Shown: positions 4,872-30,343 of the stretch, piece by piece
Numbering within the stretch: position 1 is the first letter of the stretch
Layout: the number at the start of each line of letters is the position of its first letter
From: Promethearchaeota archaeon
GTDB lineage: Archaea; Asgardarchaeota; Lokiarchaeia; Sigyniarchaeales; Promethearchaeaceae
DNA length: 32,000 bases
Assembly (NCBI GenBank): GCA_016933055.1
Contig: JAFGBS010000001.1
Location: 120,001-152,000, forward strand
Direction of reading: 5' to 3'
The notes under the pieces: generated by a model
Seen by the model: the letters and a program-made list of their open reading frames with translations, nothing else
What the model was told of the DNA's origin: nothing
Databases searched by the model: none
Translations under genes and position numbers: made by a program

Positions 4872-5591
4872 ATGAAAAAACACACCTATATACTACTCAC
4901 TGTTGTGCTGCTTTCTTTGCTAGGATCTTTCATGACTCCCGCATATGCCCAGAGTGTAAGTGACCCCGAAGGAGATGTAATTGGAGTGGATCAATGGACA
5001 GAAGGAGGAAATCCGAGAATAAATTGTGACTGGGTATGGGAAAACAGTTCAATGATCGATATCGCAACCATTGCATGGTTAGAGGTAGGAACCAATTATA
5101 CAGTAACCATGAGCTTCTACGGACAACCCAATGCTACTTTAATTGAAAATTCGACTATAGTCGCAGGAATCTTATTTTTGATCAATGGAAGTGTCTTTCC
5201 TGAAGAATTAGAGGACGATTCACCCGAAGCACATTTTACGATAAGCACCGAAGCTAATGGAACGGTTATGGGGAACTCAACAAGTGTGCAAATCAATACT
5301 ATGGTTGTAAGCGGGAATGATCTTAGCTGGACGTTCAATAAAAGCTTAGCACCCGTTACACCCGTTGTATTAGACAATTGGGATGTAGTTGCATTTTCAT
5401 TATTCCAGCAAGCTGAAGGTAATCACACTTATGCAGCATTAGATCATTATAACTTCGATTATATGGAAGATTTATTAAAACTGGCATGTTCACTGATTAA
5501 TCTACAAATACCAGGTTATTCTTTGATTGTAGTTGGCGTAATTGCTGTGATTACGGTTGGTATCCTAATAAAGAAGAAATATGATAAATAA
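4872..5591 (+). CDS. Secreted, C-terminally anchored surface (glyco)protein with Loki-CTERM-like tail
   Basis: Signal peptide MKK + hydrophobic core + AYA|Q; acidic ectodomain with 9 N-x-S/T sequons; C-terminal IPGY + TM helix + KKKYDK. Confidence 0.85.
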   Translation: MKKHTYILLTVVLLSLLGSFMTPAYAQSVSDPEGDVIGVDQWTEGGNPRINCDWVWENSSMIDIATIAWLEVGTNYTVTMSFYGQPNATLIENSTIVAGILFLINGSVFPEELEDDSPEAHFTISTEANGTVMGNSTSVQINTMVVSGNDLSWTFNKSLAPVTPVVLDNWDVVAFSLFQQAEGNHTYAALDHYNFDYMEDLLKLACSLINLQIPGYSLIVVGVIAVITVGILIKKKYDK

Positions 5592-5611
5592 TTTTTTCCC
5601 CCTATTTTTTT
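5592..5611 (+). terminator. Oligo-T archaeal terminator candidate between convergent genes
   Basis: A T6 run directly follows the stop codon at 5591. A further T7 run at 5605-5611 overlaps the end of acnA. Confidence 0.4.
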
Positions 5612-8268
5612 AATAAATTTCGTAAAACGGTGTGCAAAATGCCCCCATTTTGGTAATATTCTATATCAACCTCGCTATCTAACCGAACTACTGTCTTAAA
5701 TTTAATCATTTTGTTTTCACGTTCCGCTATCACATCAATTTCCGATAAAGGTTTCATAGTTTCGATTCCCAAAATCGAGATCTTCTCAGTTCCGATTAAT
5801 CCAACTGATTGGGCATTTTCTCCTTCTTTAAATTGCAAAGGTAGAACCCCCATACCTACTAGGTTACTTCTATGGATTCTTTCATATGAGGTGGCAATCA
5901 CAACTTTCACTCCTAATAACCATGTTCCTTTCGCAGCCCAATCGCGACTGCTTCCCATCCCATAATCTTTCCCCGCAATCACTACTGCGGGGATTCTCTT
6001 TTCGATATATTTCATCGCTGCGGTGTATATAGGCAATTCCTCCCCGGTTGGGTGATAAATGGTCCATCCTCCCTCTCTATCCACTAGTAAATTCCGAATT
6101 CTGATGTTCCCAAATGTACCTCGCATCATCACTTCATGATTTCCTCGACGGGATCCAAAGGAATTGAAATCCTCCGGATTTACTCCTTTTTTGATCAGAT
6201 ATCTCCCAGCTGGCATATCTTTAGGAATTGAACCTGCAGGGGAGATATGGTCGGTTGTGACACTTTCACCCAAGAGAGCTAATATTCGAGCTTCTTTTAT
6301 ATTTTCTAAATCGGGAATTTCTACGGGGAAATCCTTGAAAAAAGGAGGTTCTCGAATATAAGTAGAATTCTCATCCCATTGGTACACACTCTCTTGAGGT
6401 GTTTCTAATTTGTTCCAAAGATCCCAGCCTTTGAAAATTTCTCCATATTCTTCTTGAAATAAATCTGGTTTAACATATTCCGCAACCAATTTTTGAATTT
6501 CATCTGAATCTGGCCAAATATCTTTTAAGAAAACTGGTGTTCCATCTTCAGTCAAACCTAGTGGTTCTTTTTCCAAGTTTATCGCTACAGTTCCTGCTAT
6601 TGCAAATACTACCACTAATGGTGGAGAAGCAAGATAATTTGCACGAACATGCGGACTAATTCTTCCCTCAAAATTCCGATTTCCACTTAATACTGACGTA
6701 ACCGCAAGATCTTTTTCAATAATTTGTCTTACTATTTCCGTATCCAATGGTCCGCTATTCCCAATGCACGTAGTACAACCATATCCTACCAGATAAAATC
6801 CAAGTTTCTCTAAATATTTCATCAATCCAGAATTTTCCATGTAATCGGTAACTACTCGAGAACCTGGAGCAAAAGAGGTCTTAACAAAAGGTTTCACTTT
6901 CAATCCTTTTTGAACTGCATTCCGTGCAAGTAACCCGGCTCCAATCATTACGGAGGGATTAGATGTATTTGTACAAGACGTGATTGCTGCTATAACAATT
7001 GAACCATTATTTAAAGTGGAACCATCCGATATTAAATCTAATTCAACAGATTTGTCTAGATATGTTTTCATTGTTTTTCTAAATGCATTTTTCATCTCTT
7101 TAAGCATAATTCGGTCCTGCGGTCTTTTCGGACCTGCTAAACTTGACTCTACGGAGGTTAAATCGAATTCTATTAATTCATTATAATCGGGTATGGATTG
7201 CCCGTCAGTATAAAACAATCCCACTTTTTTAAGGTAGGTTTCAACAAGCTCTACATGGTCCACGTTCCGACCGCTTAAACGGAGATAATTTAAAGTCTCT
7301 TGGGTGGCGGGGAAATAATTCATAGTAGAACCGCATTCAGGAGCCATGTTTGCTATGGTTGCCCTATCGGGTAGTGAGAGAGTATTTAAACCCGGGCCAA
7401 AGAATTCAACAAACTTTTCCACCACACCGATCTCACGAAGTTTTTCTGTAATTGCCAAAACAACATCCGTGGCAGTAATCCCTTCTTTTAATTTTCCTAC
7501 TAATTTTACCCCCACTACTTCGGGAATATTCATATAATAGGGTTGTCCAAGCATAACTGCTTCTGCTTCTATTCCTCCTACCCCCCATCCTAAACAACTA
7601 AGTCCATTGATCATAGTGGTATGTGAATCAGTACCAATACAAGAATCAGGATATACCACGATTTCTCCATTTACGTCCCGTTTGTCAACAATCTTGCCCA
7701 GATATTCTAAGTTCACTTGGTGGCAAATACCTCGACTTGTTGGAACTACTCGGAAATTCTTTAATTTTTCTTGTGCCCATTTCAATAGAATGTATCGCTC
7801 CCGATTCCGCTCCATTTCATATTCTTCGTTTTTCTGTCGTGCGTTTGTGGAATCTGCAAAGTCTACTTGAATGGAATGGTCGATCACCAAATCAACGGGA
7901 TTTACCGGATTGATTTTTTCAGGGTCCCTTCCTGCGCGTTCCATCGCAGATCGTAAAGCGGCTAAATCAACAACAGCTGGAACTCCTGTGAAATCTTGTA
8001 GTAATACGCGGGTGGGTATAAAGGCTATTTCTGAATCCGAACTATTTTTAGTATCCCACTTACATAACGCCATCAGATGATTCTTAGTAACTAACTTTCC
8101 ATCCAGATTGCGTAAAATATTTTCAAGCAGTATCCGATGGGAATAAGGGAGTTTGCTAATTTTTACTAATTTTAACTCTTCCAATTTTTTTATATTATAA
8201 ATCGTTACTTTTCCCATGCTTGTGGGTATTTTTTCTTTAGTGTTGGCTTGAATTTCAATCATGTGCAT
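5602..8268 (-). CDS. acnA: Aconitate hydratase, AcnA/IRP1 family
   Basis: LLQDFTGVPAVVDLA, DHSIQVD, GICHQVNLE, GTDSHTT, the three cluster Cys (SCTNTSNP; GCTTCIGNSG), TTDHISPAG, GSSRDWAAKG; 888 aa. Alternative start at 8262. Confidence 0.97.
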   Translation of the reverse strand: MHMIEIQANTKEKIPTSMGKVTIYNIKKLEELKLVKISKLPYSHRILLENILRNLDGKLVTKNHLMALCKWDTKNSSDSEIAFIPTRVLLQDFTGVPAVVDLAALRSAMERAGRDPEKINPVNPVDLVIDHSIQVDFADSTNARQKNEEYEMERNRERYILLKWAQEKLKNFRVVPTSRGICHQVNLEYLGKIVDKRDVNGEIVVYPDSCIGTDSHTTMINGLSCLGWGVGGIEAEAVMLGQPYYMNIPEVVGVKLVGKLKEGITATDVVLAITEKLREIGVVEKFVEFFGPGLNTLSLPDRATIANMAPECGSTMNYFPATQETLNYLRLSGRNVDHVELVETYLKKVGLFYTDGQSIPDYNELIEFDLTSVESSLAGPKRPQDRIMLKEMKNAFRKTMKTYLDKSVELDLISDGSTLNNGSIVIAAITSCTNTSNPSVMIGAGLLARNAVQKGLKVKPFVKTSFAPGSRVVTDYMENSGLMKYLEKLGFYLVGYGCTTCIGNSGPLDTEIVRQIIEKDLAVTSVLSGNRNFEGRISPHVRANYLASPPLVVVFAIAGTVAINLEKEPLGLTEDGTPVFLKDIWPDSDEIQKLVAEYVKPDLFQEEYGEIFKGWDLWNKLETPQESVYQWDENSTYIREPPFFKDFPVEIPDLENIKEARILALLGESVTTDHISPAGSIPKDMPAGRYLIKKGVNPEDFNSFGSRRGNHEVMMRGTFGNIRIRNLLVDREGGWTIYHPTGEELPIYTAAMKYIEKRIPAVVIAGKDYGMGSSRDWAAKGTWLLGVKVVIATSYERIHRSNLVGMGVLPLQFKEGENAQSVGLIGTEKISILGIETMKPLSEIDVIAERENKMIKFKTVVRLDSEVDIEYYQNGGILHTVLRNLLKK

Positions 8269-8341
8269 TCTATCGTTCCTATATTTTTAAATATGTCTTT
8301 ATCGGTAGATCAGATAATCCATGCAGTAATTTAATTCTACT

Positions 8342-8351
8342 TTTTATAAAA
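8342..8351 (-). promoter_or_regulatory. Candidate TATA box (TTTTATAAAA palindrome) for acnA
   Basis: Lies in the 140-nt gap about 75 nt upstream of the acnA start, suggesting acnA has its own promoter. Confidence 0.35.
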
Positions 8352-8408
8352 GATTACAAATTTAGAGTTGCTGGCAGAGAAAAAGGAAAGTCATCAGACA
8401 TATAGATA

Positions 8409-9470
8409 TTACACTCGTTGCAAAACCTCACTAGATATCTTTTCTAAATTCTTACAGTTGGTCATCAACATTGCTTTTTTTAAGGTCTCTCTCAAATATT
8501 CCATATGAACCCGAACCCCCGCAGAACCAGCACCAACTGCTGCACGAATTAAATCTCTACCAACTAATACACTTTCTGCACCAAGAGCTAGCATTTTTAA
8601 CACATCATAGCCCGTGCGTATACCTCCATCTGCCATTATTTTGATCTTTCCTTTTACTTCCGATGCAATCTCTTGAAGCACATCTGCAGTTCCAGGAGTA
8701 TGATCCAATACTCTACCTCCATGATTACTAACCACTATTCCTGCTGCGCCAGTATTAACAGCAATCAGGGCATCTTCGATAGTCATTACACCTTTTATGA
8801 TCACCGGTAAACTAGTAGCTTGAACTAAATCTCGAATTTCTTCAGGGGATTTTCGATACACGAGTTGGTTATGAGTTTTCATTGCATAACTTCCAGCGCC
8901 ATCGATATCAATACCAACAGCAAGTGCACCTGCCTCTTCCGCTTTCTTGAAAAATTCAATGAGTAATTCTTGTTTTATAGGTTTACATATTTTTACTCCC
9001 CAACCCCTCGCTTCCTTAATTGCATTAATGCCAAAAGGTGTATTCAAAGAATAAGTATAAGTATGTCCCCGCCATCCTATTGTTCCAGCTTCTTTACAGC
9101 CTAAAACAATGGAGTGACAAAAATCTTGTTCAGAAATAACGGTATCTCCTCCGAAACTCTTCACTCCAGAAGTACTTGCTCCCATGATTGGCATAGAAGT
9201 TTCATACCCAAAAAAAGAATAATTTGTGTCGGGTTCAAAATGTTCCCCAATAAGACGCATTTTAAGTTGAAATTTTTCCAATGCTAAAATATTATTATGG
9301 AATGAAGCTCCAGAACCGACTCCCCCTATTCCTAAAGATGACTTATATGATTGATTCTGACATAAACGAGATGGATCTCCATCGCAAATTTTATAAACTC
9401 CGCAAATTCCTTTTAATTTTTCTTTTGCTTGTTTTCGTACATCTTCTAGGGATAACTTTTCCTTTGTCAT
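8409..9470 (-). CDS. FMN-dependent alpha-hydroxy-acid oxidoreductase (glycolate oxidase/L-lactate dehydrogenase superfamily, anaerobe-type)
   Basis: IIKGVMT (FMN Lys), VVSNHGGRVLD (catalytic His/Arg), DGGIRTGYD, VLVGR; N-terminal Cys-rich segment. ATG 9470 is preceded by GAGG and lies 10 nt after the fumC stop; the track start at 9503 overlaps fumC. Confidence 0.9.
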   Translation of the reverse strand: MTKEKLSLEDVRKQAKEKLKGICGVYKICDGDPSRLCQNQSYKSSLGIGGVGSGASFHNNILALEKFQLKMRLIGEHFEPDTNYSFFGYETSMPIMGASTSGVKSFGGDTVISEQDFCHSIVLGCKEAGTIGWRGHTYTYSLNTPFGINAIKEARGWGVKICKPIKQELLIEFFKKAEEAGALAVGIDIDGAGSYAMKTHNQLVYRKSPEEIRDLVQATSLPVIIKGVMTIEDALIAVNTGAAGIVVSNHGGRVLDHTPGTADVLQEIASEVKGKIKIMADGGIRTGYDVLKMLALGAESVLVGRDLIRAAVGAGSAGVRVHMEYLRETLKKAMLMTNCKNLEKISSEVLQRV

Positions 9471-9480
9471 TATTTTTTCC

Positions 9481-18264: not shown

Positions 18265-19545
18265 ATGGCTCAAAAAAGCATATATGAAGCAGCAGCGAAA
18301 CGATTAATCGCTTCTGAACTCCCAAAATATTATACTGGGTGGAAATATCACAATAAATTGCTTGTTATAGACTCAGAAAATATTGATGATATAGACACAC
18401 TAATAAAAAAAAATCCTTGGGTAAAACAAGAAAAATTAGTAGCAAAACCCGATCAACTCTTTGGGAAGCGCGGGAAGGCGAATCTAATATTACTTGGCGC
18501 TAATTGGAATGAAATGAAAGAATTCTGCAGTGCAAAAATGAATTCTGTTTTCGAAATTGGGAATTTGAAAGGTAAACTTGAACGCATCTTAGTTGAACCC
18601 TTTATTCCTCATGATCAGGAATTTTATGTGTCATTTACAACTCATCGACATGGAGATACAATCCATTTTTCTTTGGAAGGAGGTATTTTTATTGAAGAGA
18701 ATTGGGATAAAGTGACACATATTAATGTACCATTCGGAATAGACATCAGATCATTTGATTTAAAATCCAAACTCCCCGATATCGGTAAATTAGGAGAATT
18801 TATTATCCCATTTATCAAAGGTTTATACCAAGTATTTGTGGATCAAGATTTCACTTTTCTGGAATTAAATCCATTCGCACTTACCAAAATCAATGAAATT
18901 GTACCATTAGATGTAAAAGCTCGAATAGATGATACAGCGGCATTTCTTCATGGAGATACATGGGGAAATACGATTGAATTCCCGGTTGGGTTCGGTCAAG
19001 AATTTTCCGATGAAGAAATAAGGATCAGAGAACTGGATGAGAAAACGGGAGCTTCATTAAAATTGCGAATACTTAACCCAAAAGGTAGAATTTGGACTAT
19101 GGTAGCGGGTGGGGGTGCTTCCGTTGTTTATACGGATACGATTGCAGATCTTGGATTCGGGGGTGAATTAGGAAATTATGGGGAATATTCTGGCAATCCA
19201 ACTCAAGAACATACTGAAATCTATGCACATACTATAATTAACCTTATGTGTAAATACCCCTCTCCCAAAGGAAAGTTGAAGTATTTAATCATAGGAGGGG
19301 GTATTGCAAATTTCACGGATATAAAAGCTACATTTTTTGGTATAACTAACGCAATAACAAAATCCGCTGAAAAATTAAAGAAAAATAATGTACAAATTTA
19401 TGTACGACGTGGTGGTCCAAATGAGAAGGCAGGGTTGGAACTCATTCGAAAGGTTGGAGAAAAAACGGGAATCCCCATCCATGTGTATGATAGATATACC
19501 CATATGACCAAAGTTGTAGAATTAATAAAGCAAGCGGAGGAATAA
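18265..19545 (+). CDS. aclB: ATP-citrate lyase small/beta subunit (AclB in Chlorobium nomenclature = ACLA in plants)
   Basis: KPDQLFGKRGKA, VEPFIPHDQEFY, GGIFIEENWDKV, FLELNPF, DDTAAF, LDEKTGASLKL, NPKGRIWTMVAGGGASVVY, NYGEYSG, GGGIANFTD, VRRGGPN. The start ATG 18265 (MAQKSIYE) is preferred over the track's GTG 18172. Confidence 0.96.
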   Translation: MAQKSIYEAAAKRLIASELPKYYTGWKYHNKLLVIDSENIDDIDTLIKKNPWVKQEKLVAKPDQLFGKRGKANLILLGANWNEMKEFCSAKMNSVFEIGNLKGKLERILVEPFIPHDQEFYVSFTTHRHGDTIHFSLEGGIFIEENWDKVTHINVPFGIDIRSFDLKSKLPDIGKLGEFIIPFIKGLYQVFVDQDFTFLELNPFALTKINEIVPLDVKARIDDTAAFLHGDTWGNTIEFPVGFGQEFSDEEIRIRELDEKTGASLKLRILNPKGRIWTMVAGGGASVVYTDTIADLGFGGELGNYGEYSGNPTQEHTEIYAHTIINLMCKYPSPKGKLKYLIIGGGIANFTDIKATFFGITNAITKSAEKLKKNNVQIYVRRGGPNEKAGLELIRKVGEKTGIPIHVYDRYTHMTKVVELIKQAEE

Positions 19546-19547
19546 AA

Positions 19548-21386
19548 ATGAAAGACTATGAACTATTCGATAGGAATACTCAAGCAATTATTTATGGATA
19601 CCAATCGGATGCAATCCAGCGAATGGTGGATTTTGATTATGTATGTAGAAGACAGAAACCAAGCGTTGCGGCAATTATTCAACCCACTCAAACTTCTGCA
19701 ATCGCGTATCACAAAGTATTCTGGGGTTCCACAGAAATTGTGATTCCCATTTATAAAACTATCAGTATTGCAGTCGCAAAGCATCCTACAGCAGATGTTT
19801 TAATCAATTTTGCTTCTTTCCGCTCAGCATTTGAAACCAGCTTAGAAGCACTTCACACAAAAACCATTCGGACAATAGTCATCATTGCTGAGGGTATTCC
19901 GGAAAAACATTCTAGATTATTGATTAAAGTCGCTGAAGAGAACAACAAATTTATTATCGGACCAGCAACAGTCGGAGGGATCGTTGCTGGTGCATTCAAA
20001 ATCGGAAATACGGCTGGAACATTAGAAAACATCATTCTGAGCAAACTTTATCGACCGGGTTCCGTAGGATTTGTATCAAAATCGGGTGGAATGAGCAATG
20101 AAATGTATTTTATGATAGCACAGAACACCGACGGTATTCGAGAGGGTGTAGCAGTAGGTGGAGACCGTTATCCGGGTTCCACATTATTGGATCATCTTAT
20201 ACGGTTTGAGAAAAACCCCAGCATCAAAATGTTGGTCTGCTTAGGAGAAATTGGAGGGACGGATGAGTACGCCATAGTAGATGCTCTTAGCAAGGAAAAT
20301 ATCACGAAACCATTAGTTATGTGGGTTACGGGTACTGCAGCTCGCATATTACCGAAAGGATTACAATTTGGCCATGCCGGTGCGATGGCTGGAAGCGAAA
20401 ATGAAACTGCGGAAGCGAAAAATAGAGCACTAAAAGATGCTGGTGCAATTGTTCCAAATTCATATAACGATTTCGATAAAAAAATAAAAGAAACATTTGA
20501 AAATCTGAAGAAACAAGGTATAATCCAACCTATTGAGGATTTTGAACCCCCTCAGATTCCAATAGACTTCAAAGATGCCGTAAAGCAAGGACTTGTGCGA
20601 CGTCCAACAGACGTAGTTGTAACGATTTCTGATGATCGAGGAGATATCCCCACTTTTAGTAAAGTAGGATTGGATGAAATCATAGAGAAGAATAAATCGA
20701 TCGGATACGTAATCGGTTTACTGTGGTTTAAACGGAAATTACCCGATTTTGCGCAGCAGTTCATTGAGATGGTGATCAAATTAACGGCAGATCATGGACC
20801 TGCAGTAAGTGGTGCCCATAATGCAATTGTTACGGCGCGTGCGGGGAAAGATTTAATGTCATCATTGTCAAGCGGCATCCTTACCATCGGTCCTCGATTC
20901 GGAGGAGCAATTTCTGATGCAGCAAGATATTTCCGAGAAGCTCTTTTGAAAAAAATGAGTCCACAAGAATTTGTTTCCTATATGAAAAACGTGCTAAAGA
21001 TAAATATACCGGGAATTGGTCACAGGATTAAGTCTATTGAGAATCCTGATGTTCGAGTTAAACTTTTGAAAGAGTTTGTATTCCAGAATTTTAAGAAACA
21101 TCCTTATCTTGATTTTGCATTGGAAGTTGAAAAATTAACCACTACTAAACGCAATAATCTGATCTTGAATGTGGATGGATGCATCGGAATCACCTTTCTT
21201 GATATGTTGGAAAATCTTGATTTTACAGCTGAAGAAATTGAAGATGTGATCTACAGCGAAACTCTCAATGGACTGTTCGTATTAGGGCGTTCGATCGGCA
21301 TGATGGGTCATATATTTGATCAGAAACGCCAACGAGCAGGATTATACCGACAACCCTGGGATGAAATTCTGTTTTCAGATTCGTAA
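19548..21386 (+). CDS. aclA: ATP-citrate lyase large/alpha subunit (AclA = plant ACLB): SCS-alpha-like plus citryl-CoA lyase domain
   Basis: NFASFRSA, IAEGIPE, GPATVGG, KLYRPGSVGFVSKSGGMSNE, phospho-His QFGHAGA, TADHGPAVSGAHN, IGPRFGGA, IPGIGHRIKS, LNVDG. Confidence 0.97.
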   Translation: MKDYELFDRNTQAIIYGYQSDAIQRMVDFDYVCRRQKPSVAAIIQPTQTSAIAYHKVFWGSTEIVIPIYKTISIAVAKHPTADVLINFASFRSAFETSLEALHTKTIRTIVIIAEGIPEKHSRLLIKVAEENNKFIIGPATVGGIVAGAFKIGNTAGTLENIILSKLYRPGSVGFVSKSGGMSNEMYFMIAQNTDGIREGVAVGGDRYPGSTLLDHLIRFEKNPSIKMLVCLGEIGGTDEYAIVDALSKENITKPLVMWVTGTAARILPKGLQFGHAGAMAGSENETAEAKNRALKDAGAIVPNSYNDFDKKIKETFENLKKQGIIQPIEDFEPPQIPIDFKDAVKQGLVRRPTDVVVTISDDRGDIPTFSKVGLDEIIEKNKSIGYVIGLLWFKRKLPDFAQQFIEMVIKLTADHGPAVSGAHNAIVTARAGKDLMSSLSSGILTIGPRFGGAISDAARYFREALLKKMSPQEFVSYMKNVLKINIPGIGHRIKSIENPDVRVKLLKEFVFQNFKKHPYLDFALEVEKLTTTKRNNLILNVDGCIGITFLDMLENLDFTAEEIEDVIYSETLNGLFVLGRSIGMMGHIFDQKRQRAGLYRQPWDEILFSDS

Positions 21387-21485
21387 TCCAAATAAAAAAG
21401 AGGAATTTTTTCCCAGATTGTTTGAATTTAAAACCAATAATAATTTAATATACTTCCCCCCAAAATGAATATGGAATTGAATGGT

Positions 21486-22706
21486 ATGGTTGAAATGGAA
21501 GAAAAATATGAGATGTATAAAACGATCCAAAAAGTGAAAGATCATGTGGCTAATTTGGTCATGGAACAATTGGATCGGATTGAACACATGAAACAGGAAC
21601 TTGATTTTATTGATTATACAAACTTGAAAAAAATCATTATTGGCATTATTCCGGGAGATGGAATTGGACCAGAAATAACCAAGCATGCCCACATGATTTT
21701 AGAGTTTCTCCTCGAAGAAGAAATCAAATCTGGTGCTATCGAACTTCGGGAAATCGAAGGACTTACAATTGAAGAACGCGCAAAGGTAATGAAAGCTATT
21801 CCCGATGATGTTCTTGTTGAGTTAAAGAAATGTCATGTGCTTTTAAAGGGTCCCACTATGACTCCTCGAAAAGGGGATAAATGGCCTAATATCGAAAGCG
21901 CAAACGTAGCAATGCGCCGTTATCTGGATCTGTTTGCAAACGTCCGACCTGTTCGAGTACCCCATTTAGGTATTGATTGGATGTTTTTCCGCGAAAATAC
22001 CGAAGGTGCGTATGTTTTAGGCTCGAAAGGAATAAACGTGACCGAAGATCTTGCCTTGGACTTTACCGCAGTAACCAAACAAGGATCGGAACGAATCATT
22101 CGAGCGGGATTTGAGTATGCAAAGAAAAACAGGATCAAAAAAGTATCCATTGTAACCAAGGCAAATGTCATTAAGACAACGGATGGTATGTTTTTGAATA
22201 TTGCTGAAAGAATCGCTGCGGAGTATCCAGATATTGAGTGCGATGATTGGTACGTTGACATAATGACGGCCAAACTCATAGATCCTGCGCGTCAGAAACA
22301 ATTCCGAGTGATTATTGCACCCAATTTATATGGAGATATTTTGACGGATCAAGCCGGTCAGATCCAAGGCGGTGTTGGAACTGCTGGAAGTGCGAATATT
22401 GGCAAGAGATATGCTATGTTTGAGGCAATTCATGGCACAGCAGATAAGATGATTGCTGAGGGGCGTGCAAAATATGCAGATCCCTCCAGTATCATAAAAG
22501 CTGCGGCATTATTGTTAAGCCATATTGAATTAAACATTAAAGCCCAAAAACTCGAAATGGCCTTAGATATTTGCTCAACATATGAAAAAAGACTTAAGGT
22601 GACGGGGAGAAGTACAGGAGTCACTGGAGAAGATTTTGCTAAATATATAATGGAAACCTTGAAAGATCCGAAATTGGAAGAGAAATGGAAAAAATATCAA
22701 GAATAA
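21486..22706 (+). CDS. icd: Isocitrate dehydrogenase (isocitrate/isopropylmalate dehydrogenase family); start uncertain (21465/21486/21495)
   Basis: PGDGIGPEI, LKGPT, isocitrate-specific S-x-N-x3-R (ESANVAMRR), RENTEGAY, TKANVIK, NLYGDILTD, FEAIHG; located in the TCA cluster. Confidence 0.88.
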   Translation: MVEMEEKYEMYKTIQKVKDHVANLVMEQLDRIEHMKQELDFIDYTNLKKIIIGIIPGDGIGPEITKHAHMILEFLLEEEIKSGAIELREIEGLTIEERAKVMKAIPDDVLVELKKCHVLLKGPTMTPRKGDKWPNIESANVAMRRYLDLFANVRPVRVPHLGIDWMFFRENTEGAYVLGSKGINVTEDLALDFTAVTKQGSERIIRAGFEYAKKNRIKKVSIVTKANVIKTTDGMFLNIAERIAAEYPDIECDDWYVDIMTAKLIDPARQKQFRVIIAPNLYGDILTDQAGQIQGGVGTAGSANIGKRYAMFEAIHGTADKMIAEGRAKYADPSSIIKAAALLLSHIELNIKAQKLEMALDICSTYEKRLKVTGRSTGVTGEDFAKYIMETLKDPKLEEKWKKYQE

Positions 22707-23200: not shown

Positions 23201-23331
23201 ACATTCATTATACTTTACCCATTTATTACCCCGCTTCTAAGCCGATATTGTATAGTTTAGGGAATTTAACCAAAATTTTATATCGTTCTATACTTTTTCC
23301 TTCTCAAATTCTAGCTTTTAAAGTGAGCAGC

Positions 23332-24672
23332 ATGAAGAAAAAATCTGTAATAATTATCGGCGCATTAGGCATGGACTTCCATGTATTTAACACCGTATTT
23401 CGAGACAACGAGGAATATAATGTTATTGCATTTACTATTGCAGGAGAACAAAATGTTGGTACTACCGAGAATGCAGAACGTAAATATCCTTCTGAACTAG
23501 CGGGTGTACTCTATCCAAATGGAATTCCGATGGTACCTGAAACTGAATTGATCTCCATGATAAAGAAACATAATGTAGATGAAGTGGTTTTTGCCTACTC
23601 TGATGTTTCTCATGAAGAAGTAATGCATAAAGCCTCCCGAACACTTGCAGCGGGTGCAAATTATCGGTTAATTTCAAAAAGATTCACGATGATTAAGGCT
23701 AAAAAACCCGTTGTAGCTATTTGTGCGGTTCGTACGGGGTGTGGAAAATCTCAAGTGTCTCGAGCAACCTACCGCTACTTAAAATCCAAGGGACATCGGG
23801 TTGTAGCTATTAGAGAACCGATGCCGTATGGTGATTTGGTAGAACAAGAAGTTATGCGATTCGCAACTTATGAAGACCTTGATAAATACAAATGTACAAT
23901 CGAAGAAAGGGAAGAATATGAGCCGTATATTGAACAAGGTTTGGTTATTTACAGTGGCGTTGATTATGAGAAAATTGTGAGAGAAGCGGAGAAAGAAGCT
24001 GATGTAATTGTGTTTGATGGAGGAAATAACGAAATTTCTTTCTATGTTCCCGATTTGCAATTTGTAGTCGTAGATCCGCTTCGACCAGGTCACGAGATGA
24101 AATATCATCCCGGAGAAGTAAACGCGCGTTTAGCAGATGCGTTTGTCATTAATAAAATGAATAGTGCAAAACCAGAGAATGTTGCAATAGTTGATAAAAA
24201 TCTGGATGAATTAAATCCAAAAGCGATGAGAATTTATACAGATTCCGTAGTAACAGTCGATAACGTCAAAGAAATTAAAGGTAAACGAGCTATAGTGGTG
24301 GAGGACGGCCCAACATTAACTCACGGGAATATGGCTTATGGGGCAGGGTATATTGCTGCTAAAAACAACGATGTAACCATAGTGGATCCAAAACCACATA
24401 TTGTAGGTACTATGAAAAAAGTGTTTGAAGAATTTCCACAAATTACTGAAATCGTACCCGCTATGGGATATAATGATGAACAAATCCGAGATATGCAAAC
24501 GACACTAAATAACATTGACGCAGACATTATCATAGATGGGTCTCCAATTGACTTGGCAAAATTAGTGAAAGTAAATAAACCGATCTATCGAGTGTACTAT
24601 GACATTGAATCTATCCAATCTCCAAGTATAGAGGATGCCTTAGATAAATTTATTGCAAAACACCTTAATTAA
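23332..24672 (+). CDS. P-loop ATP-dependent ligase of the cDPGS / arginine synthetase (ArcE)-like family, with divergent motifs
   Basis: P-loop AVRTGCGKS; AYSDVSH; PMPYGDL; TIEEREEYEP; DGGNN; HPGE; VEDGPTLTHG; PAMGY. The start ATG 23332 (MKKKSVIIIG) is preferred over TTG 23248. Confidence 0.85.
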   Translation: MKKKSVIIIGALGMDFHVFNTVFRDNEEYNVIAFTIAGEQNVGTTENAERKYPSELAGVLYPNGIPMVPETELISMIKKHNVDEVVFAYSDVSHEEVMHKASRTLAAGANYRLISKRFTMIKAKKPVVAICAVRTGCGKSQVSRATYRYLKSKGHRVVAIREPMPYGDLVEQEVMRFATYEDLDKYKCTIEEREEYEPYIEQGLVIYSGVDYEKIVREAEKEADVIVFDGGNNEISFYVPDLQFVVVDPLRPGHEMKYHPGEVNARLADAFVINKMNSAKPENVAIVDKNLDELNPKAMRIYTDSVVTVDNVKEIKGKRAIVVEDGPTLTHGNMAYGAGYIAAKNNDVTIVDPKPHIVGTMKKVFEEFPQITEIVPAMGYNDEQIRDMQTTLNNIDADIIIDGSPIDLAKLVKVNKPIYRVYYDIESIQSPSIEDALDKFIAKHLN

Positions 24673-24881: not shown

Positions 24882-27065
24882 ATGATTCTATCTGAAATGA
24901 AATATGAAATGCATCCTATAGAAAAGGGATATAATAATCGCACTTTATATGTGAATCTTACAACAAACGAAATTCAAATTAAACTCGTTACCCAAGGAAT
25001 GAAAGAAACATTCACTGGAGGTAAAGGGTTTGATCTTTGGTTAATGTGGAACTCGTTGCCGAAAGATCGAATTGTAAAGTGGAATGATCCCGAAAACGAA
25101 ATTTGTATAGCTTCGGGACCACTTTCTGGTACTAACTTCATCCCAGGTTCTGGAAAATCAATTGTTACTACTATATCCCCTTTAACGGGAATGATTATTG
25201 ATTCAAATGTAGGGGGGTTCTATGGTCCTTTCCTAAAATATTCCGGGTTTGATGCAATTGAGATCCAAGGAAAAGCAAAAGAAGAAGTTGTTGTTTTTGT
25301 TGATGGCGAGAATCATGTTGTTCGGATTGAAACAGCGGAAAACACCCCTAAATATTCACATGAACTCACTCAATACCTCACTAATAATTTTTCCCCTGAA
25401 GATAATCCAGCAGATAAGTATCGTGTTTCAGTTGTTTCCACGGGTCCTGCTGCCGGCTACACTAACTGGGGGTTGTTGAATTTTAGCTGGTATATTCGAC
25501 CCCGGGAATGGGCTTCGTATAAACAAGCGGGTCGGGGGGGAATTGGCACTGTGTTTAAAGATAAAAACATCAAAGCTTTAATTTGCTTGTCCCCCAAAAA
25601 ACCCCAACGTGATGTAGGTGCTGCAAATAAGGATATTGCACGAAATTCGGGAGCTAAACATAACAAAGAAATTATTACTAATGATCCAAAGCAAAATCAA
25701 ATGCGGCAGATTGGAACGGGACACCTTCCTATCATTATGAATGAATATGATCTTTTACCTACAGAAAACTATCGATTTGGAAGACATCGGACTTGGAGTG
25801 AAGAAGAGGGTGAATTTCCGTACTCTTGGGATGTCTGGAAAACCTTTATGATTGATGAACATGGTCTTAGTGGATGTTGGACGGGGTGTACTATTGCTTG
25901 CTCGCATTTTTCTCCTAATCACACTTTACTGACAGGTCCACTCAAAGGACAGGTAGTCCCTATTGATGGTCCCGAATATGAAACTATTGCAGGTTGCGGG
26001 TCAAATTGGGGGGTCTGGGATCCGAAATGGATTCTGGAAGTCAATTTTTACTGTGATACCTATGGGCTTGATACCATTTCAGTGGGAACTGGTATTGCAT
26101 TTGTAATGGAGTGTTATGAATCCGGAATTCTGAATAAGGAAATTACCGGTGGTTTAGAATTGAACTTTGGAAATGCAGAAGCTGCAATGGAATTAGTTCA
26201 TCAAATGGCTCGTGGTGAGGGCTTTGGGATGATTGTTGGAAAAGGTATTCGTCAAATGAAGAAAATTTTTGCTGATAATTATGGTGGAGACCCCCAATTT
26301 CTCCAAGATATCGGAATGGAGCATAAAGGACTTGAAGTTTCTGAATATATGACCAAGGAATCTATTGCCCAACAAGGTGGCTATGGATTCACACTTAAAG
26401 GGCCTCAACACGATGAAGCGTGGCTCATATTCGAGGATATGGTAAGAAAGTCAATTCCAACGTTTGAGGATAAAGCTAATGCGCTGTGTTGGTTTCCGTT
26501 CTTTAGAACTTGGTTTGGGTTGAATGGATTATGTAAATTACCATGGAATGATGTGCAACCTCCAGATAATAAAGATAATCCTATAAAAGATGAGAACGGA
26601 GAACTATATCGGGCACGTATTCCCAAGCATGTACAGTTCTACGCGGATTATGCTGAAGGAATTACCGGTGTACCAACTACACCTGAAGATCTTGTAAAGA
26701 GAAGTGAAGTTGTATATAATTTCCAACGTATTTTCAATATTCGACAAGGGCACGGATTGCGGAACGACGATGCAAATTTTCCGTATCGTGGTATGGGACC
26801 GGTTACTCCCTTGGAATATGAAAGTCGGAAGAGTCGTTATGACACTCAGTTGAAAGAGATTTTAGGAATCGATCCTACCGATAAAACAACAGAGGAAAAA
26901 ATTAGGAACTTACGGAAATATAGAGAGGAGCAATACACGAAATTGCAAAATGTTGTATATGAGAAACGCGGATGGAGTAAGCACGGTTGTCCGACCATTG
27001 AGAAAGTTAAAGAACTCGGAATTGATTTTGAAGACGTGCTTAAGGTCATTCAACCATACCAATAA
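24882..27065 (+). CDS. Tungsten/molybdenum aldehyde:ferredoxin oxidoreductase family protein (long 727-aa type)
   Basis: GPLSGT..PGSGK, SPLTG.I.DSNVGG, LKYSGFDAI, GRGGIGTVF..KNIKA, Cys cluster CWTGCTIAC, GPEYET, CDTYGLDTIS, HKGLE, GLCK, Y..RGW...G.P. Confidence 0.93.
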   Translation: MILSEMKYEMHPIEKGYNNRTLYVNLTTNEIQIKLVTQGMKETFTGGKGFDLWLMWNSLPKDRIVKWNDPENEICIASGPLSGTNFIPGSGKSIVTTISPLTGMIIDSNVGGFYGPFLKYSGFDAIEIQGKAKEEVVVFVDGENHVVRIETAENTPKYSHELTQYLTNNFSPEDNPADKYRVSVVSTGPAAGYTNWGLLNFSWYIRPREWASYKQAGRGGIGTVFKDKNIKALICLSPKKPQRDVGAANKDIARNSGAKHNKEIITNDPKQNQMRQIGTGHLPIIMNEYDLLPTENYRFGRHRTWSEEEGEFPYSWDVWKTFMIDEHGLSGCWTGCTIACSHFSPNHTLLTGPLKGQVVPIDGPEYETIAGCGSNWGVWDPKWILEVNFYCDTYGLDTISVGTGIAFVMECYESGILNKEITGGLELNFGNAEAAMELVHQMARGEGFGMIVGKGIRQMKKIFADNYGGDPQFLQDIGMEHKGLEVSEYMTKESIAQQGGYGFTLKGPQHDEAWLIFEDMVRKSIPTFEDKANALCWFPFFRTWFGLNGLCKLPWNDVQPPDNKDNPIKDENGELYRARIPKHVQFYADYAEGITGVPTTPEDLVKRSEVVYNFQRIFNIRQGHGLRNDDANFPYRGMGPVTPLEYESRKSRYDTQLKEILGIDPTDKTTEEKIRNLRKYREEQYTKLQNVVYEKRGWSKHGCPTIEKVKELGIDFEDVLKVIQPYQ

Positions 27066-27083
27066 ATCGGAAGAAACCACCAA

Positions 27084-29180
27084 ATGAAGGATATTCAAGA
27101 ACACCCGATTTTAACCATACCAGAACGCAAGAAAATTTCTTTCACGTTCAATGGAGTACCACTAATGGGATATGAGGGAATTGTTATTTCCTCCAATCTT
27201 TTTCTCAATGGTATTAAGATATTTGGACATCATGAAAAAGATAATTCTCCCCAAGGCATTTTTTGTTGCATGGGGCAATGTTCGCAATGCATGGTTCTCG
27301 TAAACGGGCAAGCTATGAAATCTTGTATGACACCATTAAAAGAGGGTATGCAGATTGAAAGCTGTGAGGGGTTGCCAGAACTTCCAGCTCGCGATTCACC
27401 AAGAGAAACTCAACAAATTGAAATCCTTAAAGTAAATACCCTCATAATCGGGGCGGGACCCTCGGGATTATCCGCTGCTAAAACTCTGGGTGAAAAAGGA
27501 GTGGAAATATTACTTATTGATGATAAGGATAGAGTTGGAGGTAAACTAGTGTTGCAAACGCACAAATTCTTTGGTTCTCAAGAGGATGTGTATGCGGGAA
27601 AGCGAGGAATAGAAATCGCAGATATTTTGGGTGATCAGGTAAAAATACTAGAATCGGTTAGGATCTGGTTAAACTCTACTGCTGTAGGATTATTTAGCGA
27701 TGGATTTGTAGGAATTCTCAAAGATCATGACACGTATGTTCTAGTAAAACCAGAAAACTTACTGATCGCAACCGGTGCTCGTGAAAAAATGCTTGTTTTT
27801 CCTGGAAATACTCTACCGGGAGTGTATGGAGCGGGGGCCTTCCAAGTTCTAGTAAATAGAGATCTTGTGAAACCTGCAGAACAAGTGTTTATTGTAGGGG
27901 GGGGAAATGTGGGCTTGATTGCAGGATATCATGCGATCCAAGCTGGAATTGAGGTGATTGGATTAATAGAAGCACTTCCACAATGCGGTGGTTATAAAGT
28001 TCATGAAGAAAAACTCAGACGATTGGGAGTTCCTATATACACCAGTTATACAATTGTCTCTGCAAATGGAAAAAACCGAGTTGAATCCATAACCATAGGA
28101 AAAATTGATGAAAATTGGATGCTAATTCCCGGAACAGAACGAACCTATAAATGTGATACGATTCTGATTGCGGTCGGATTGAATCCTGTGGATGAGTTTT
28201 ATACGAAAGCGAAAGAATATGGATATAGTGTATGGATCTGCGGGGATGCTCAAGAAATTGCGGAAGCTTCCGCTGCAATATTTACAGGTAGAATTGAAGC
28301 GATAAAGATTCTTAATAAAATGGGGGTGGATATTTCTGATTGTGATGAACTTACATATCTTGAACAAAAAGCTACCATCATGAAAACTCACCCCCCCTCC
28401 CCTACAGAATTCGCATGTCCCGATAAAGAAGAAGGTATTTTTCCTGTTTTTCATTGTACCCAAGAGATTCCCTGCAATCCTTGTACAACAGTGTGCCCAC
28501 AAGGTCAAATCCATACTATAAATGATGCTATTGACAAGCTTCCGTATTTTAAAGGAGAAAAAGAGTGTATTGGATGTGGTGCTTGCGTTGCCGTCTGTCC
28601 TGGGCTTGCAATTACGCTAGTAGACTATCGAAGAGACCCTCAAAATCCACATGTTACATTCCCTATGGAATTAACTGAAGAAAAAATCAAAAAAGGATCT
28701 ACAATAATTGTAGCTAGTGAAGACGGAAACTTGGGAAAATACGATGTTATCCATTCACGTATTTTACCTCAATTTCCCAAAACCCATTTAGTCACTGTAC
28801 AACTTCCCGCGAATATTGCAAAATTAGCAACAGCGATTAAATTAGTCCCTAAAAAGCAGACTACCATCGAGCCTATCGATTTGTATAAATCTGAACGTAT
28901 TGAAGATGATGAAATTGTATGTCGATGTGAACGAGTGACTGCAGCTACGGTACGGATGTGGATACGGAAAGGTGTTAAAGATTTCAATGAACTGAAGGGT
29001 TTAACGAGAGTGGGCATGGGTTCTTGCCAAGGAAAAACGTGTATACCTATCATAATGCGTATTTTTAGAGACGAAGGCGTTCCTATTGACGAAGTTACCG
29101 AAAACACCATTCGTCCCTTATATATGGAAGTCCCCTTAGGAACTTTCGCGGGGGTCAAAAGGGAGGATGAGAATACATGA
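27084..29180 (+). CDS. Fused Fe-S flavoprotein: [2Fe-2S] + FAD/NAD(P) reductase + 2x[4Fe-4S] + BFD-like [2Fe-2S] (sarcosine oxidase-alpha / proline dehydrogenase-alpha-like)
   Basis: FCCMGQCSQC...SC; GAGPSG; ATGAREK; GGGNVG; CTQEIPCNPCTTVCP and CIGCGACVAVCP; VCRCERV...GMGSCQGKTC. Confidence 0.88.
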   Translation: MKDIQEHPILTIPERKKISFTFNGVPLMGYEGIVISSNLFLNGIKIFGHHEKDNSPQGIFCCMGQCSQCMVLVNGQAMKSCMTPLKEGMQIESCEGLPELPARDSPRETQQIEILKVNTLIIGAGPSGLSAAKTLGEKGVEILLIDDKDRVGGKLVLQTHKFFGSQEDVYAGKRGIEIADILGDQVKILESVRIWLNSTAVGLFSDGFVGILKDHDTYVLVKPENLLIATGAREKMLVFPGNTLPGVYGAGAFQVLVNRDLVKPAEQVFIVGGGNVGLIAGYHAIQAGIEVIGLIEALPQCGGYKVHEEKLRRLGVPIYTSYTIVSANGKNRVESITIGKIDENWMLIPGTERTYKCDTILIAVGLNPVDEFYTKAKEYGYSVWICGDAQEIAEASAAIFTGRIEAIKILNKMGVDISDCDELTYLEQKATIMKTHPPSPTEFACPDKEEGIFPVFHCTQEIPCNPCTTVCPQGQIHTINDAIDKLPYFKGEKECIGCGACVAVCPGLAITLVDYRRDPQNPHVTFPMELTEEKIKKGSTIIVASEDGNLGKYDVIHSRILPQFPKTHLVTVQLPANIAKLATAIKLVPKKQTTIEPIDLYKSERIEDDEIVCRCERVTAATVRMWIRKGVKDFNELKGLTRVGMGSCQGKTCIPIIMRIFRDEGVPIDEVTENTIRPLYMEVPLGTFAGVKREDENT

Positions 29181-30343
29181 CCTTTTACGATGTAATTATC
29201 GTTGGAGCGGGTAGTATCGGCACACCTACCGCAATGGCATTAGCAAATGCAGGAGTAAAAACTTTGGTTGTTGATAAACTACCATCCGTTGCTCAAGGGG
29301 ACAATAAACATGCCATAGGAGGAATTCGCGCTACACATTCCCAAAAAAGCAAAATTCTCGTTTGCCAGCGTTCTTTAGAAATATTTTCTACTTGGGAAGA
29401 ATTATATGGAGATGATATCTGGTGGGTAGAAGGTGGATATTCCTTTGTTGCGCGATCTGTAGAACACGAACGCCTTCTAAGAGAAACAGTAGAAATTCAG
29501 AAAGAGTATGGATTGAACATCAGTTTTTTGGATGCTGAACAGATTCAGGAACTTATACCTGGAATAAATCCCATTGGTTTGCATGGTGGTACATATAGCC
29601 CAGAAGATGGGAATGCTTCTCCTCTTTATAGTGTACACGCATTCTACGATAATGCTACCAGAAACGGGGCAGAATTTAAGTTTAAAGAGCAAGTCAAGAA
29701 CATCCTAACTAAAAACAGACACGTTGTCGGTGTTAGGACTGACAAAGCTGATTATCAAGCTTCCTTTGTGATTAATGCAGCTGGTGGTAACGGAAAAGAA
29801 ATCGCTAAAATGGTGGATGTTAATGTTCCTTTAGAACCGGAATCTCATGAAGCGGGTATAACTGAAGGAGTAAAATATTTTTTGAGACCAATGGTAGTAG
29901 ATATTCAGCCAGGAACAGATCCCACCTTCGGTAATTCAAAAAATTATTATTTCTATCAAAATAAATTCGGGAAGATAATTTTCTGTATAACCCCAAATCC
30001 GAGTGTTAAAGGAAAGGATAGAACAGAAACTAGTTTTTTTCTTCCCCAAATAGCAAAACGAATGGTTGATCTGATGCCTCGACTCAGCAATATAAAAGTT
30101 CGTCGTCAGTGGAGAGGATTGTACCCGATGACTCCTGATGGAATTCCAATTGTTGGAACAGTAAAGAATATTGCTGGATATATAAATGCAGTAGGGATGT
30201 GTGGTCAAGGTTTTATGTTAGGCCCTGGATTGGGGGAAGTTCTTTGCCGTTTGGTAGAAAAAAAAATTACATCCCAAGACAAGGAAATACTAAAAGAATT
30301 CTCCCTTTATCGTGATTTTGGCAGTGAAGAGAAATTAAAATAA
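29177..30343 (+). CDS. DAO-family FAD-dependent amine/amino-acid dehydrogenase (sarcosine oxidase-beta / L-proline dehydrogenase-beta-like)
   Basis: GAGSIG, GGIRATHS, DGNASP, INAAGG, WRGLYPMTPDGIPIVG, GMCGQGFMLGP; ATGA overlap with the upstream gene. Confidence 0.88.
   Translation: MTFYDVIIVGAGSIGTPTAMALANAGVKTLVVDKLPSVAQGDNKHAIGGIRATHSQKSKILVCQRSLEIFSTWEELYGDDIWWVEGGYSFVARSVEHERLLRETVEIQKEYGLNISFLDAEQIQELIPGINPIGLHGGTYSPEDGNASPLYSVHAFYDNATRNGAEFKFKEQVKNILTKNRHVVGVRTDKADYQASFVINAAGGNGKEIAKMVDVNVPLEPESHEAGITEGVKYFLRPMVVDIQPGTDPTFGNSKNYYFYQNKFGKIIFCITPNPSVKGKDRTETSFFLPQIAKRMVDLMPRLSNIKVRRQWRGLYPMTPDGIPIVGTVKNIAGYINAVGMCGQGFMLGPGLGEVLCRLVEKKITSQDKEILKEFSLYRDFGSEEKLK

Follow-up and report, generated by a model that had tools for sequence, protein, structure and literature searches.

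The eukaryotic host cell has its closest known relatives in the Asgard archaea, whose use of ATP-citrate lyase (ACL) and the tricarboxylic acid (TCA) cycle bears on models of the origin of eukaryotes, because eukaryotes make their cytosolic acetyl-CoA by ACL. For Lokiarchaeia, a complete TCA cycle with isocitrate dehydrogenase (IDH), 2-oxoacid:ferredoxin oxidoreductase (OFOR) and ACL was reported as a reductive TCA (rTCA) cycle, with sdhC and sdhD missing and malate dehydrogenase (MDH) assigned only via COG2055 homology (Bulzu et al., bioRxiv 10.1101/385732). The AMARA metagenome-assembled genomes (MAGs), including AMARA_1, come from the same lake-sediment study (AMARA/TEKIR). ACL was further described in “various Asgardarchaeota” (PMC11976288) and in “most Asgard phyla” (bioRxiv 10.1101/2022.10.25.513756). 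Here we analyse a TCA gene cluster on a 32,000-nucleotide stretch (hereafter the window) of the Promethearchaeota archaeon assembly GCA_016933055.1, which corresponds to 120–152 kb of the 303.5-kb contig JAFGBS010000001.1. A preliminary description of this window held that a co-regulated complete ACL-type cycle in an Asgard archaeon would be notable, a claim of novelty that does not hold given the reports above.

The cluster occupies positions 5602–22706 of the window (~17 kb) and comprises twelve genes in two arms that diverge from a 157-nt spacer (15953–16109), as established from the open reading frame (ORF) map and two profile libraries. The minus-strand arm leads from korA (14225–15952) through korB (13373–14224), sdhA (11650–13362), sdhB (10869–11648), fumC (9481–10875) and a gene of the FMN-dependent α-hydroxy-acid dehydrogenase family (FMN_dh; 8409–9470) to acnA (5602–8268), and the plus-strand arm carries sucC (16110–17249), sucD (17250–18119), aclB (18265–19545), aclA (19548–21386) and icd (21465–22706). 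All twelve genes are thus present where the preliminary description had placed them, and the profile searches agree with the identities that it gave. Its claims of a tight 0–10-nt spacing from korA to the hydroxy-acid gene (0, 10, 1, −7 [an overlap] and 10 nt, followed by 140 nt to acnA) and of a missing malate/oxaloacetate step in the cluster are likewise borne out. No other close copy of any of the twelve genes exists in the 3.76-Mb genome, where paralogues are limited to two further OFORs, one with two subunits (~50% identical) and one with four, and to two distant flavoproteins that resemble SdhA. With single-copy genes and a two-arm layout that recurs in relatives, the arrangement is beyond chance. 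The role that we favour, with a probability of roughly 0.45, is that of a net reductive, citrate-cleaving, branched route for redox balancing and biosynthesis, which would be fed by glutamate and aspartate and would not be the main path of CO2 fixation.

The contig is neither bacterial nor visibly chimeric, since the closest ACL loci in named genomes come without exception from Asgard MAGs (36/36; Promethearchaeota, Thor-, Odin-, Hermod- and Hodarchaeota), the GC content of ~0.35 is uniform over all 36 contigs, an archaeal 16S gene is present in the genome, and the flanking DUF1801 gene and a 474-aa gene are syntenic in the isolate AMARA_1 (G001). The latter is the nearest relative, with 75–83% protein identity, and was placed in the same genus by the grouping tool. 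The Asgard origin assumed previously is therefore upheld, and to judge from its nearest gene relatives the host appears to be a Lokiarchaeia-type archaeon. The assembly is estimated to be 91% complete and 3.3% contaminated, and the genome-wide searches below refer to this assembly.

The core of the plus-strand arm encodes the two subunits of ACL. AclB, of the ACLY-A type, is the ATP-grasp and citrate-binding subunit (Citrate_synth_N and Citrate_bind; PF24948 with 216 bits, PF16114 with 256 bits), and its residues 1–421 align to residues 1–416 of Methanosaeta concilii ACLY-A (PDB 6hxi_A; 418 bits). The homologues and 6hxi_A align from the ATG at 18265, which is thus taken as the start codon instead of the GTG at 18172. 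AclA, of the ACLY-B type, is the CoA-ligase and citryl-CoA-lyase subunit, with CoA_binding (PF02629), Ligase_CoA (PF00549) and the C-terminal domain of Citrate_synt (PF00285, profile positions 147–354), and it matches 6hxi_B over residues 2–609 with 801 bits, compared to 726 bits for human ACLY and 428 bits for Chlorobium AclA. The sequence FGHAGAMAG is found near residue 284, so that the histidine of the GHAGA loop, the catalytic phospho-histidine site of this enzyme family, is kept; the GHAGA motif is also present in SucD. The enzyme is therefore predicted to be a heteromeric ACLY-A/B of the Methanothrix/eukaryote-like type that would cleave citrate in an ATP-dependent manner.

Within the genome, PF00285 matches only aclA, and a tblastn search of the whole genome with the citrate synthase of AMARA_1 as query returned only chance matches (E above 3). 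ACL is thus the only enzyme in the genome that is predicted to make or split citrate, as had been proposed. The presence of a citrate synthase had been named as evidence that would speak against this proposal, and while none is found in this genome, AMARA_1 carries a 425-aa citrate synthase gene within the corresponding cluster, between FMN_dh and acnA. In an alignment with AMARA_1 the flanks of this slot match and the ~1.26-kb interior is absent from the 140-nt gap (8269–8408) of the present cluster, which holds no citrate synthase remnant. A citrate synthase is also found near or next to acnA in G025, L052/L053 and L054, and among 31 relatives of the same order a full-length citrate synthase is present in 11, with both citrate synthase and ACL in three. 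A recent loss in this genome is the simplest interpretation, the alternative being a gain in the relatives. Because the same-genus relative carries the gene in its cluster, the handling of citrate by ACL in place of a citrate synthase characterises this genome and is not stable in the group.

The remaining enzymes were assigned from profiles and structures. The aconitate hydratase AcnA (Aconitase and Aconitase_C) scores 1336 with TIGR01341 (cutoff 945). The succinyl-CoA synthetase consists of SucC (beta; ATP-grasp_2 and Ligase_CoA), which is borderline for NF001913 (369 vs. a cutoff of 370), and SucD (alpha; CoA_binding and Ligase_CoA), which passes NF004230 (384 vs. 336). KorA is the alpha subunit (fused gamma and alpha) of a two-subunit OFOR (Pfam POR and POR_N; TIGR03710 581 vs. 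a cutoff of 483) and KorB its TPP-binding beta subunit (TPP_enzyme_C and PFO_beta_C; TIGR02177 322 vs. 262). The structures nearest to KorA are the OFOR of Sulfolobus (5b48), which is a broad-range enzyme, and the 2-oxoglutarate:ferredoxin oxidoreductase of Magnetococcus (6n2n), the latter aligning over the full length; it is the gene context that suggests 2-oxoglutarate as the substrate of KorAB. Icd belongs to the small NAD-IDH/IDH3-like type (Pfam Iso_dh) and is closest to the isocitrate dehydrogenase structures 6m3s, 6ltf and 6lky, but falls under all NCBIfam equivalog cutoffs. It has an N-terminal extension of 55–58 residues (21465–21640) that is not seen in solved homologues and is largely kept in the same-genus relative.

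FumC is predicted to be a class II fumarase by its domains (Lyase_1 and FumaraseC_C), and its best structures are those of fumarase C (433 bits) ahead of aspartase (381 bits). With TIGR00979 it reaches 564, which is under the cutoff of 665, while the score for the aspartase subfamily is just sufficient (510.7 vs. 510). The assignment as an aspartase that the NCBIfam scores suggest is judged less likely, as the ranking of the PDB structures and the motifs GRTHLQDA and GSSIMPGKINP favour fumarase; we take GRTH and GSSIMPGK to be a fumarase-type signature.

The flavoprotein SdhA of the succinate dehydrogenase (SDH)/fumarate reductase (FAD_binding_2 and Succ_DH_flav_C; TIGR01812 736 vs. a cutoff of 567) is closer to SdhA of E. 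coli and mitochondria (498 bits) than to FrdA (~400 bits), and carries the histidine for covalent FAD and a flavin-site motif in its Gln variant. The iron-sulfur subunit SdhB (Fer2_3 and Fer4_8; TIGR00384 205 vs. a cutoff of 88) has three Cys clusters (54/59/62/74, 166/169/172/175 and 223/229/233). SdhAB lacks the membrane anchor that is a hallmark of complex II (SdhC/D or SdhE/F) in the available genome: there is no match to PF01127 (Sdh_cyt) genome-wide, sdhB overlaps fumC so that no ORF lies between them, and no ORF with a transmembrane segment stands next to sdhB. In locus L052, ORFs of 78 and 209 aa follow sdhB, but were ruled out as hidden anchors because they contain no hydrophobic segments.

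No canonical enzyme for the malate/oxaloacetate step was found in this genome. The only Ldh_1 gene (contig C11:4189–5178; L049) encodes a protein that passes the equivalog cutoff for NAD-dependent L-lactate dehydrogenase (TIGR01771 368 vs. 304) and whose specificity position is occupied by Gln; it was thus rejected as MDH. A malate:quinone oxidoreductase (Mqo) was not found in the genome. Two candidates are left for this step, namely FMN_dh and an Ldh_2 (COG2055) protein encoded 9 kb beyond the window, at 160886–161914 of contig C16. The latter is under all equivalog cutoffs, and its family occurs in 29 of the 31 relatives whatever their TCA content.

FMN_dh matches Pfam FMN_dh with 205 bits. 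Its AF2 model (pLDDT 83.8) is similar in Foldseek to mandelate oxidase, long-chain hydroxy-acid oxidase (LCHAO) and glycolate oxidase (TM 0.72–0.75, E ~1e-24), and by this model the protein is predicted to have the TIM-barrel fold of the PF01070 family. K226 and H250-G-G-R253 do not vary among 30 homologues from Asgard archaea, and the corresponding IKG and SNHGGR line up with the catalytic Lys and His-x-x-Arg of lactate and mandelate oxidases. The N-terminal half is divergent, with three invariant Cys and a weak alignment to solved members, and Tyr24, Tyr129 and Arg164, which are presumably the substrate residues of glycolate oxidase, could not be mapped onto it. The homologues, named Prometh-, Loki-, Thor-, Hermod- and Heimdallarchaeota, form a family that is 65–74% identical across Asgard lineages. 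In 13 Asgard genomes, including Heimdall-, Thor- and Loki-labelled MAGs, the gene lies directly downstream of fumC, and all five of the 31 relatives that possess FMN_dh have fumC with FMN_dh directly after it. The orthologue in G027 (C92:5552–6601) contains one in-frame TAA, which may reflect a pseudogene, a sequencing error or recoding.

L-malate, the product of fumarase, is an (S)-2-hydroxy acid. Since the neighbouring fumC makes this compound, malate is a candidate substrate of FMN_dh, and gene order makes the protein a candidate for the malate/oxaloacetate enzyme. That it is a new L-malate:acceptor oxidoreductase or oxaloacetate reductase that closes the Asgard cycle in place of NAD-MDH or Mqo is a tentative proposal, with the odds rather against it. 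The nearest Atlas clusters, uncharacterised bacterial “alpha-hydroxy-acid oxidizing proteins”, allow no transfer of function, and a literature search for an FMN-dependent malate enzyme returned nothing relevant. An obligate partnership of FMN_dh with SdhAB was ruled out, as G027 and G028 have fumC-FMN_dh but no SdhA orthologue. A replacement of FMN_dh by MDH at the same place is also unsupported: in loci without FMN_dh, fumC is followed by an aldehyde dehydrogenase or an M28 peptidase.

These genes could also serve an oxidative cycle whose citrate is formed, with a yield of ATP, by ACL working backwards, and this takeover would explain why the loss of the genuine citrate synthase was tolerated. 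Such a cycle would account for the gene that is present in the same-genus cluster and gone here while acnA and icd are retained, it agrees with the SDH-like character of SdhA, and an FMN-dependent oxidation of malate beside fumC would favour the direction from malate to oxaloacetate. However, no terminal oxidase, SDH anchor or futalosine marker was found in the genome, no respiratory acceptor system is seen that could serve as an obvious sink for the electrons of succinate, and a succinate oxidation that produces H2 needs membrane-driven reverse electron transport. We consider such a cycle quite improbable. The oxidation of succinate to H2 or ferredoxin is thermodynamically very unfavourable without a quinone-linked membrane system. 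Because succinate oxidation would thus have no obvious electron outlet here, the reductive, citrate-cleaving sense is favoured.

The spacing within the arms bears on how the genes might be expressed. Apart from the 140-nt gap in front of acnA, which probably contains a separate acnA promoter, there are gaps of 145 nt between sucD and aclB, as follows from the aclB start at 18265, and of 78 nt between aclA and icd. All three hold AT-rich, TATA-like stretches, which is weak evidence in a genome of 35% GC. Because of these gaps, several transcription units would be expected instead of a single co-regulated operon pair, probably about five: korAB-sdhAB-fumC-FMN_dh, acnA, sucCD, aclBA and icd. The label “co-regulated”, which the cluster had been given, is therefore not supported. 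The divergent spacer presumably contains back-to-back promoters, and its AT-rich central block TAAAACCATTTTGCTATAA is common to AMARA_1 and DZ3S.305, two relatives whose layout is the same. A perfect 9-nt inverted repeat, AGAGTTTTT and AAAAACTCT at a distance of 10 nt, is located at 16060–16087, ~25 nt upstream of the sucC start, and could be an operator; at this GC content the features of the spacer are weak evidence as well. The public sequencing runs that contain the stretch are DNA only, and metatranscriptomes of the same study contain almost none of its sequence words, which has no bearing on expression.

Comparison with other Asgard genomes indicates which parts of the cluster travel together. 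The aclB-aclA-icd core is contiguous or almost so in 25 of 36 Asgard loci, with icd after aclA in 25/36 and sucCD upstream of the ACL core in 10/36. ACL (PF16114) was found in 15 of the 31 same-order genomes and, in an even sample of the phylum of 201 genomes that are at least 80% complete, in 53 genomes, in 29 of the 88 high-quality genomes and in eight of the 25 families included. By contrast, SdhA is present in only 3/31 relatives. The divergent korA|sucC junction is shared with L002, L012, L013, L014 and L035; a near-complete two-arm cluster is seen again in AMARA_1 (L002) and in L013, and one with inserted genes on a contig common to L014 and L052. Since SdhA is rare and two-arm loci are few, compared to the common aclBA-icd core, the full cluster recurs, but only in a minority of genomes of the Lokiarchaeia type, whereas the ACL-IDH core is found widely.

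These data also bear on the view that there is no cycle at all, and that the cluster consists of co-located, separately transcribed biosynthetic modules held together by inheritance and not by shared flux, with korAB-sucCD for succinyl-CoA/2-oxoglutarate, aclBA-icd-acnA for glutamate/acetyl-CoA, and fumC-FMN_dh for the recycling of fumarate from purine and arginine synthesis. The three gaps with their TATA-like stretches would fit this view, and the modules occur apart elsewhere: aclBA-icd stands alone in many loci, fumC-FMN_dh and ACL are present without sdhA in G027 and G028, and unrelated genes are inserted between modules in L052/L053 and L050. Yet the two-arm arrangement is kept in at least three species at 64–83% protein identity, and the stretch from korA to FMN_dh, with its tight junctions of 0–10 nt, links enzymes for four steps that follow each other directly or nearly so, so that a mere collection of modules seems quite unlikely.

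The metabolic setting of the genome is that of an organism that looks anaerobic. CdhC of the carbon monoxide dehydrogenase/acetyl-CoA synthase (CODH/ACS) is present, indicating the Wood-Ljungdahl pathway, together with two [NiFe]-hydrogenases, while no heme-copper oxidase (COX1) and, as described above, no SDH anchor was found in the genome. For quinone synthesis, the futalosine markers MqnA/D are absent from the genome; the classical men pathway was not searched. Three genes for glutamate or amino-acid dehydrogenases and eight paralogues of aldehyde ferredoxin oxidoreductase (AOR) are present, and the flanks of the cluster hold an M29 peptidase, an AOR and a proline/sarcosine-dehydrogenase-like pair. 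GTP-dependent phosphoenolpyruvate carboxykinase (PEPCK) and three genes of the PPDK/PEPS family (PPDK_N) connect oxaloacetate to phosphoenolpyruvate (PEP). Neither an archaeal-type PEP carboxylase (PF14010) nor a pyruvate carboxylase (PYC_OADA) has a match in the genome; the bacterial PEP carboxylase (PF00311) was not searched.

A complete autotrophic rTCA cycle, in which CO2 would be fixed by ACL, OFOR and fumarate reductase either in addition to the Wood-Ljungdahl pathway or in its place, has been inferred for the same group in published work (bioRxiv 10.1101/385732). It would find all its marker enzymes in one cluster without a citrate synthase, the additional OFOR paralogues could serve as pyruvate synthase, and PPDK/PEPS-family genes, PEPCK and hydrogenases are at hand. 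Reduced ferredoxin could further be made from H2, with concomitant reduction of fumarate, by the products of a gene string on contig C17 that contains OFOR, HdrA, MvhDGA, HdrCB-like and TfrA-like proteins. On the other hand, a second route of CO2 fixation would be redundant with CODH/ACS, the two carboxylases were not found within the limits of the searches just given, and with SdhA in 3/31 but ACL in 15/31 relatives, ACL mostly occurs without a full cycle. Moreover, this ACL is of the Methanothrix/eukaryote type and not of the Chlorobium rTCA type, and many genes of amino-acid catabolism are present. A full autotrophic cycle therefore appears unlikely.

The branched heterotrophic route is preferred over this autotrophic cycle because the genome encodes the Wood-Ljungdahl pathway and many functions of amino-acid catabolism. 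The host would be a peptide- and amino-acid-using anaerobe that bears the Wood-Ljungdahl pathway. In this organism, 2-oxoglutarate would be converted through isocitrate and citrate to acetyl-CoA and oxaloacetate by Icd, Acn and ACL, oxaloacetate would be reduced via malate and fumarate to succinate, and succinyl-CoA and 2-oxoglutarate would be interconverted by the ferredoxin-dependent OFOR and SucCD. The aclBA-icd core connects 2-oxoglutarate with acetyl-CoA and oxaloacetate in three steps, and that it is common while SdhA is rare supports the branched route. As a matter of pure inference, a redox-balanced scheme using both arms can be drawn that would convert two glutamate into two succinate and one acetate with the gain of one ATP: the first glutamate would take the oxidative path via Kor and SucCD, and the second the reductive path via Icd, Acn, ACL, the malate step, FumC and SdhAB.

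Several points weigh against this branched reductive route. The direction of flux, for which the preliminary description had also claimed no more than inference, cannot be read from DNA, the preference stated here being a bioenergetic argument only. The SDH-like SdhA, with its covalent-FAD histidine and Gln variant, seems to fit either direction, and the in-cluster citrate synthase of the relatives implies that citrate is probably synthesized, i.e., that the pathway runs in the oxidative sense, in at least some lineages. If FMN_dh oxidises malate, this segment would be oxidative as well. Finally, an anchor, a citrate synthase or a quinone pathway may sit in the remainder of the 91% complete genome.

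Further genes in the window and elsewhere in the genome deserve mention. Downstream of the cluster, on the plus strand (24882–30343), an AOR gene is followed by genes for a 698-aa 2Fe-2S/FAD/4Fe-4S/BFD protein and a DAO-family flavoprotein, whose stop and start codons overlap. The latter two proteins are similar to dehydrogenase complexes of the proline/sarcosine type and would channel amino-acid carbon towards glutamate/2-oxoglutarate. The string on contig C17 (657000–675000; L057), outside the window, comprises on the minus strand a four-subunit OFOR, HdrA, MvhD, MvhG, MvhA, a HycI protease, an HdrC-like protein, an HdrB/SdhE-like CCG protein, a 2Fe-2S/4Fe-4S protein and a TfrA-like flavoprotein, which keeps the motifs HPT, PRD, HY..GG and NRL.GNSL and is without the histidine for covalent FAD. 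The string could encode a soluble reductase of fumarate (or of a related compound), driven by H2 and coupled to Hdr, which would also supply the adjacent OFOR with reduced ferredoxin. Between the cluster and the AOR gene, positions 23248–24672 (plus strand) encode a 474-aa soluble P-loop protein (GCGKS) without a Pfam or NCBIfam match, which is 76–82% identical in AMARA_1 and L031 and is there too encoded just downstream of the TCA cluster. On the other side of the cluster (4872–5591, plus strand) lies a gene for a 239-aa protein with a signal-like N-terminus, a C-terminal transmembrane segment, several N-x-S/T sequons and no family match, which is probably a surface glycoprotein.

Among the known systems, the Lokiarchaeia of Bulzu et al. 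(bioRxiv 10.1101/385732) are like the present case in enzyme set, in the lack of sdhC/D, in the doubt about MDH and in the group of organisms. Gene presence is listed there, whereas the two-arm cluster, the in-cluster citrate synthase of AMARA_1, the lack of this gene in the present genome and the fumC-FMN_dh pair are not described in the accessible part of the report. The ACLY-A/B of Methanothrix (Methanosaeta) concilii (PDB 6HXI/6ZNW) has the same two-subunit domain order, aligns over the full length and shares the GHAGA histidine. The rTCA cycle of Chlorobium and Campylobacterota has by annotation the same three marker activities (ACL, OFOR and the fumarate reductase/SDH flavoenzyme). However, the ACL described here is distant from Chlorobium AclA (428 bits, compared to 801 bits for 6hxi_B), no SDH anchor was found, the Wood-Ljungdahl pathway coexists, and no PEP carboxylase, of which the archaeal type was searched, or pyruvate carboxylase was found. 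To our knowledge, the Methanothrix ACL has not been reported within a full TCA cluster. The anaerobe Desulfobacter postgatei is said to run an oxidative cycle with ACL as the citrate-forming enzyme and no citrate synthase, its electrons reportedly being accepted by sulfate respiration and a membrane-bound SDH. By contrast, no comparable acceptor was found in the present genome when oxidase, SDH anchor and futalosine marker were searched. The published picture is thus unchanged by this cluster, which shows the whole enzyme set cleanly in one uninterrupted stretch. What looks new compared to these systems is the architecture of the cluster, with gaps that speak for several transcription units, the presence or absence of an in-cluster citrate synthase between genomes of the same genus, which provides a natural comparison, and the fumC-linked FMN_dh as a concrete candidate for the conversion of malate to oxaloacetate, a step that lacks a convincing assignment in these organisms.

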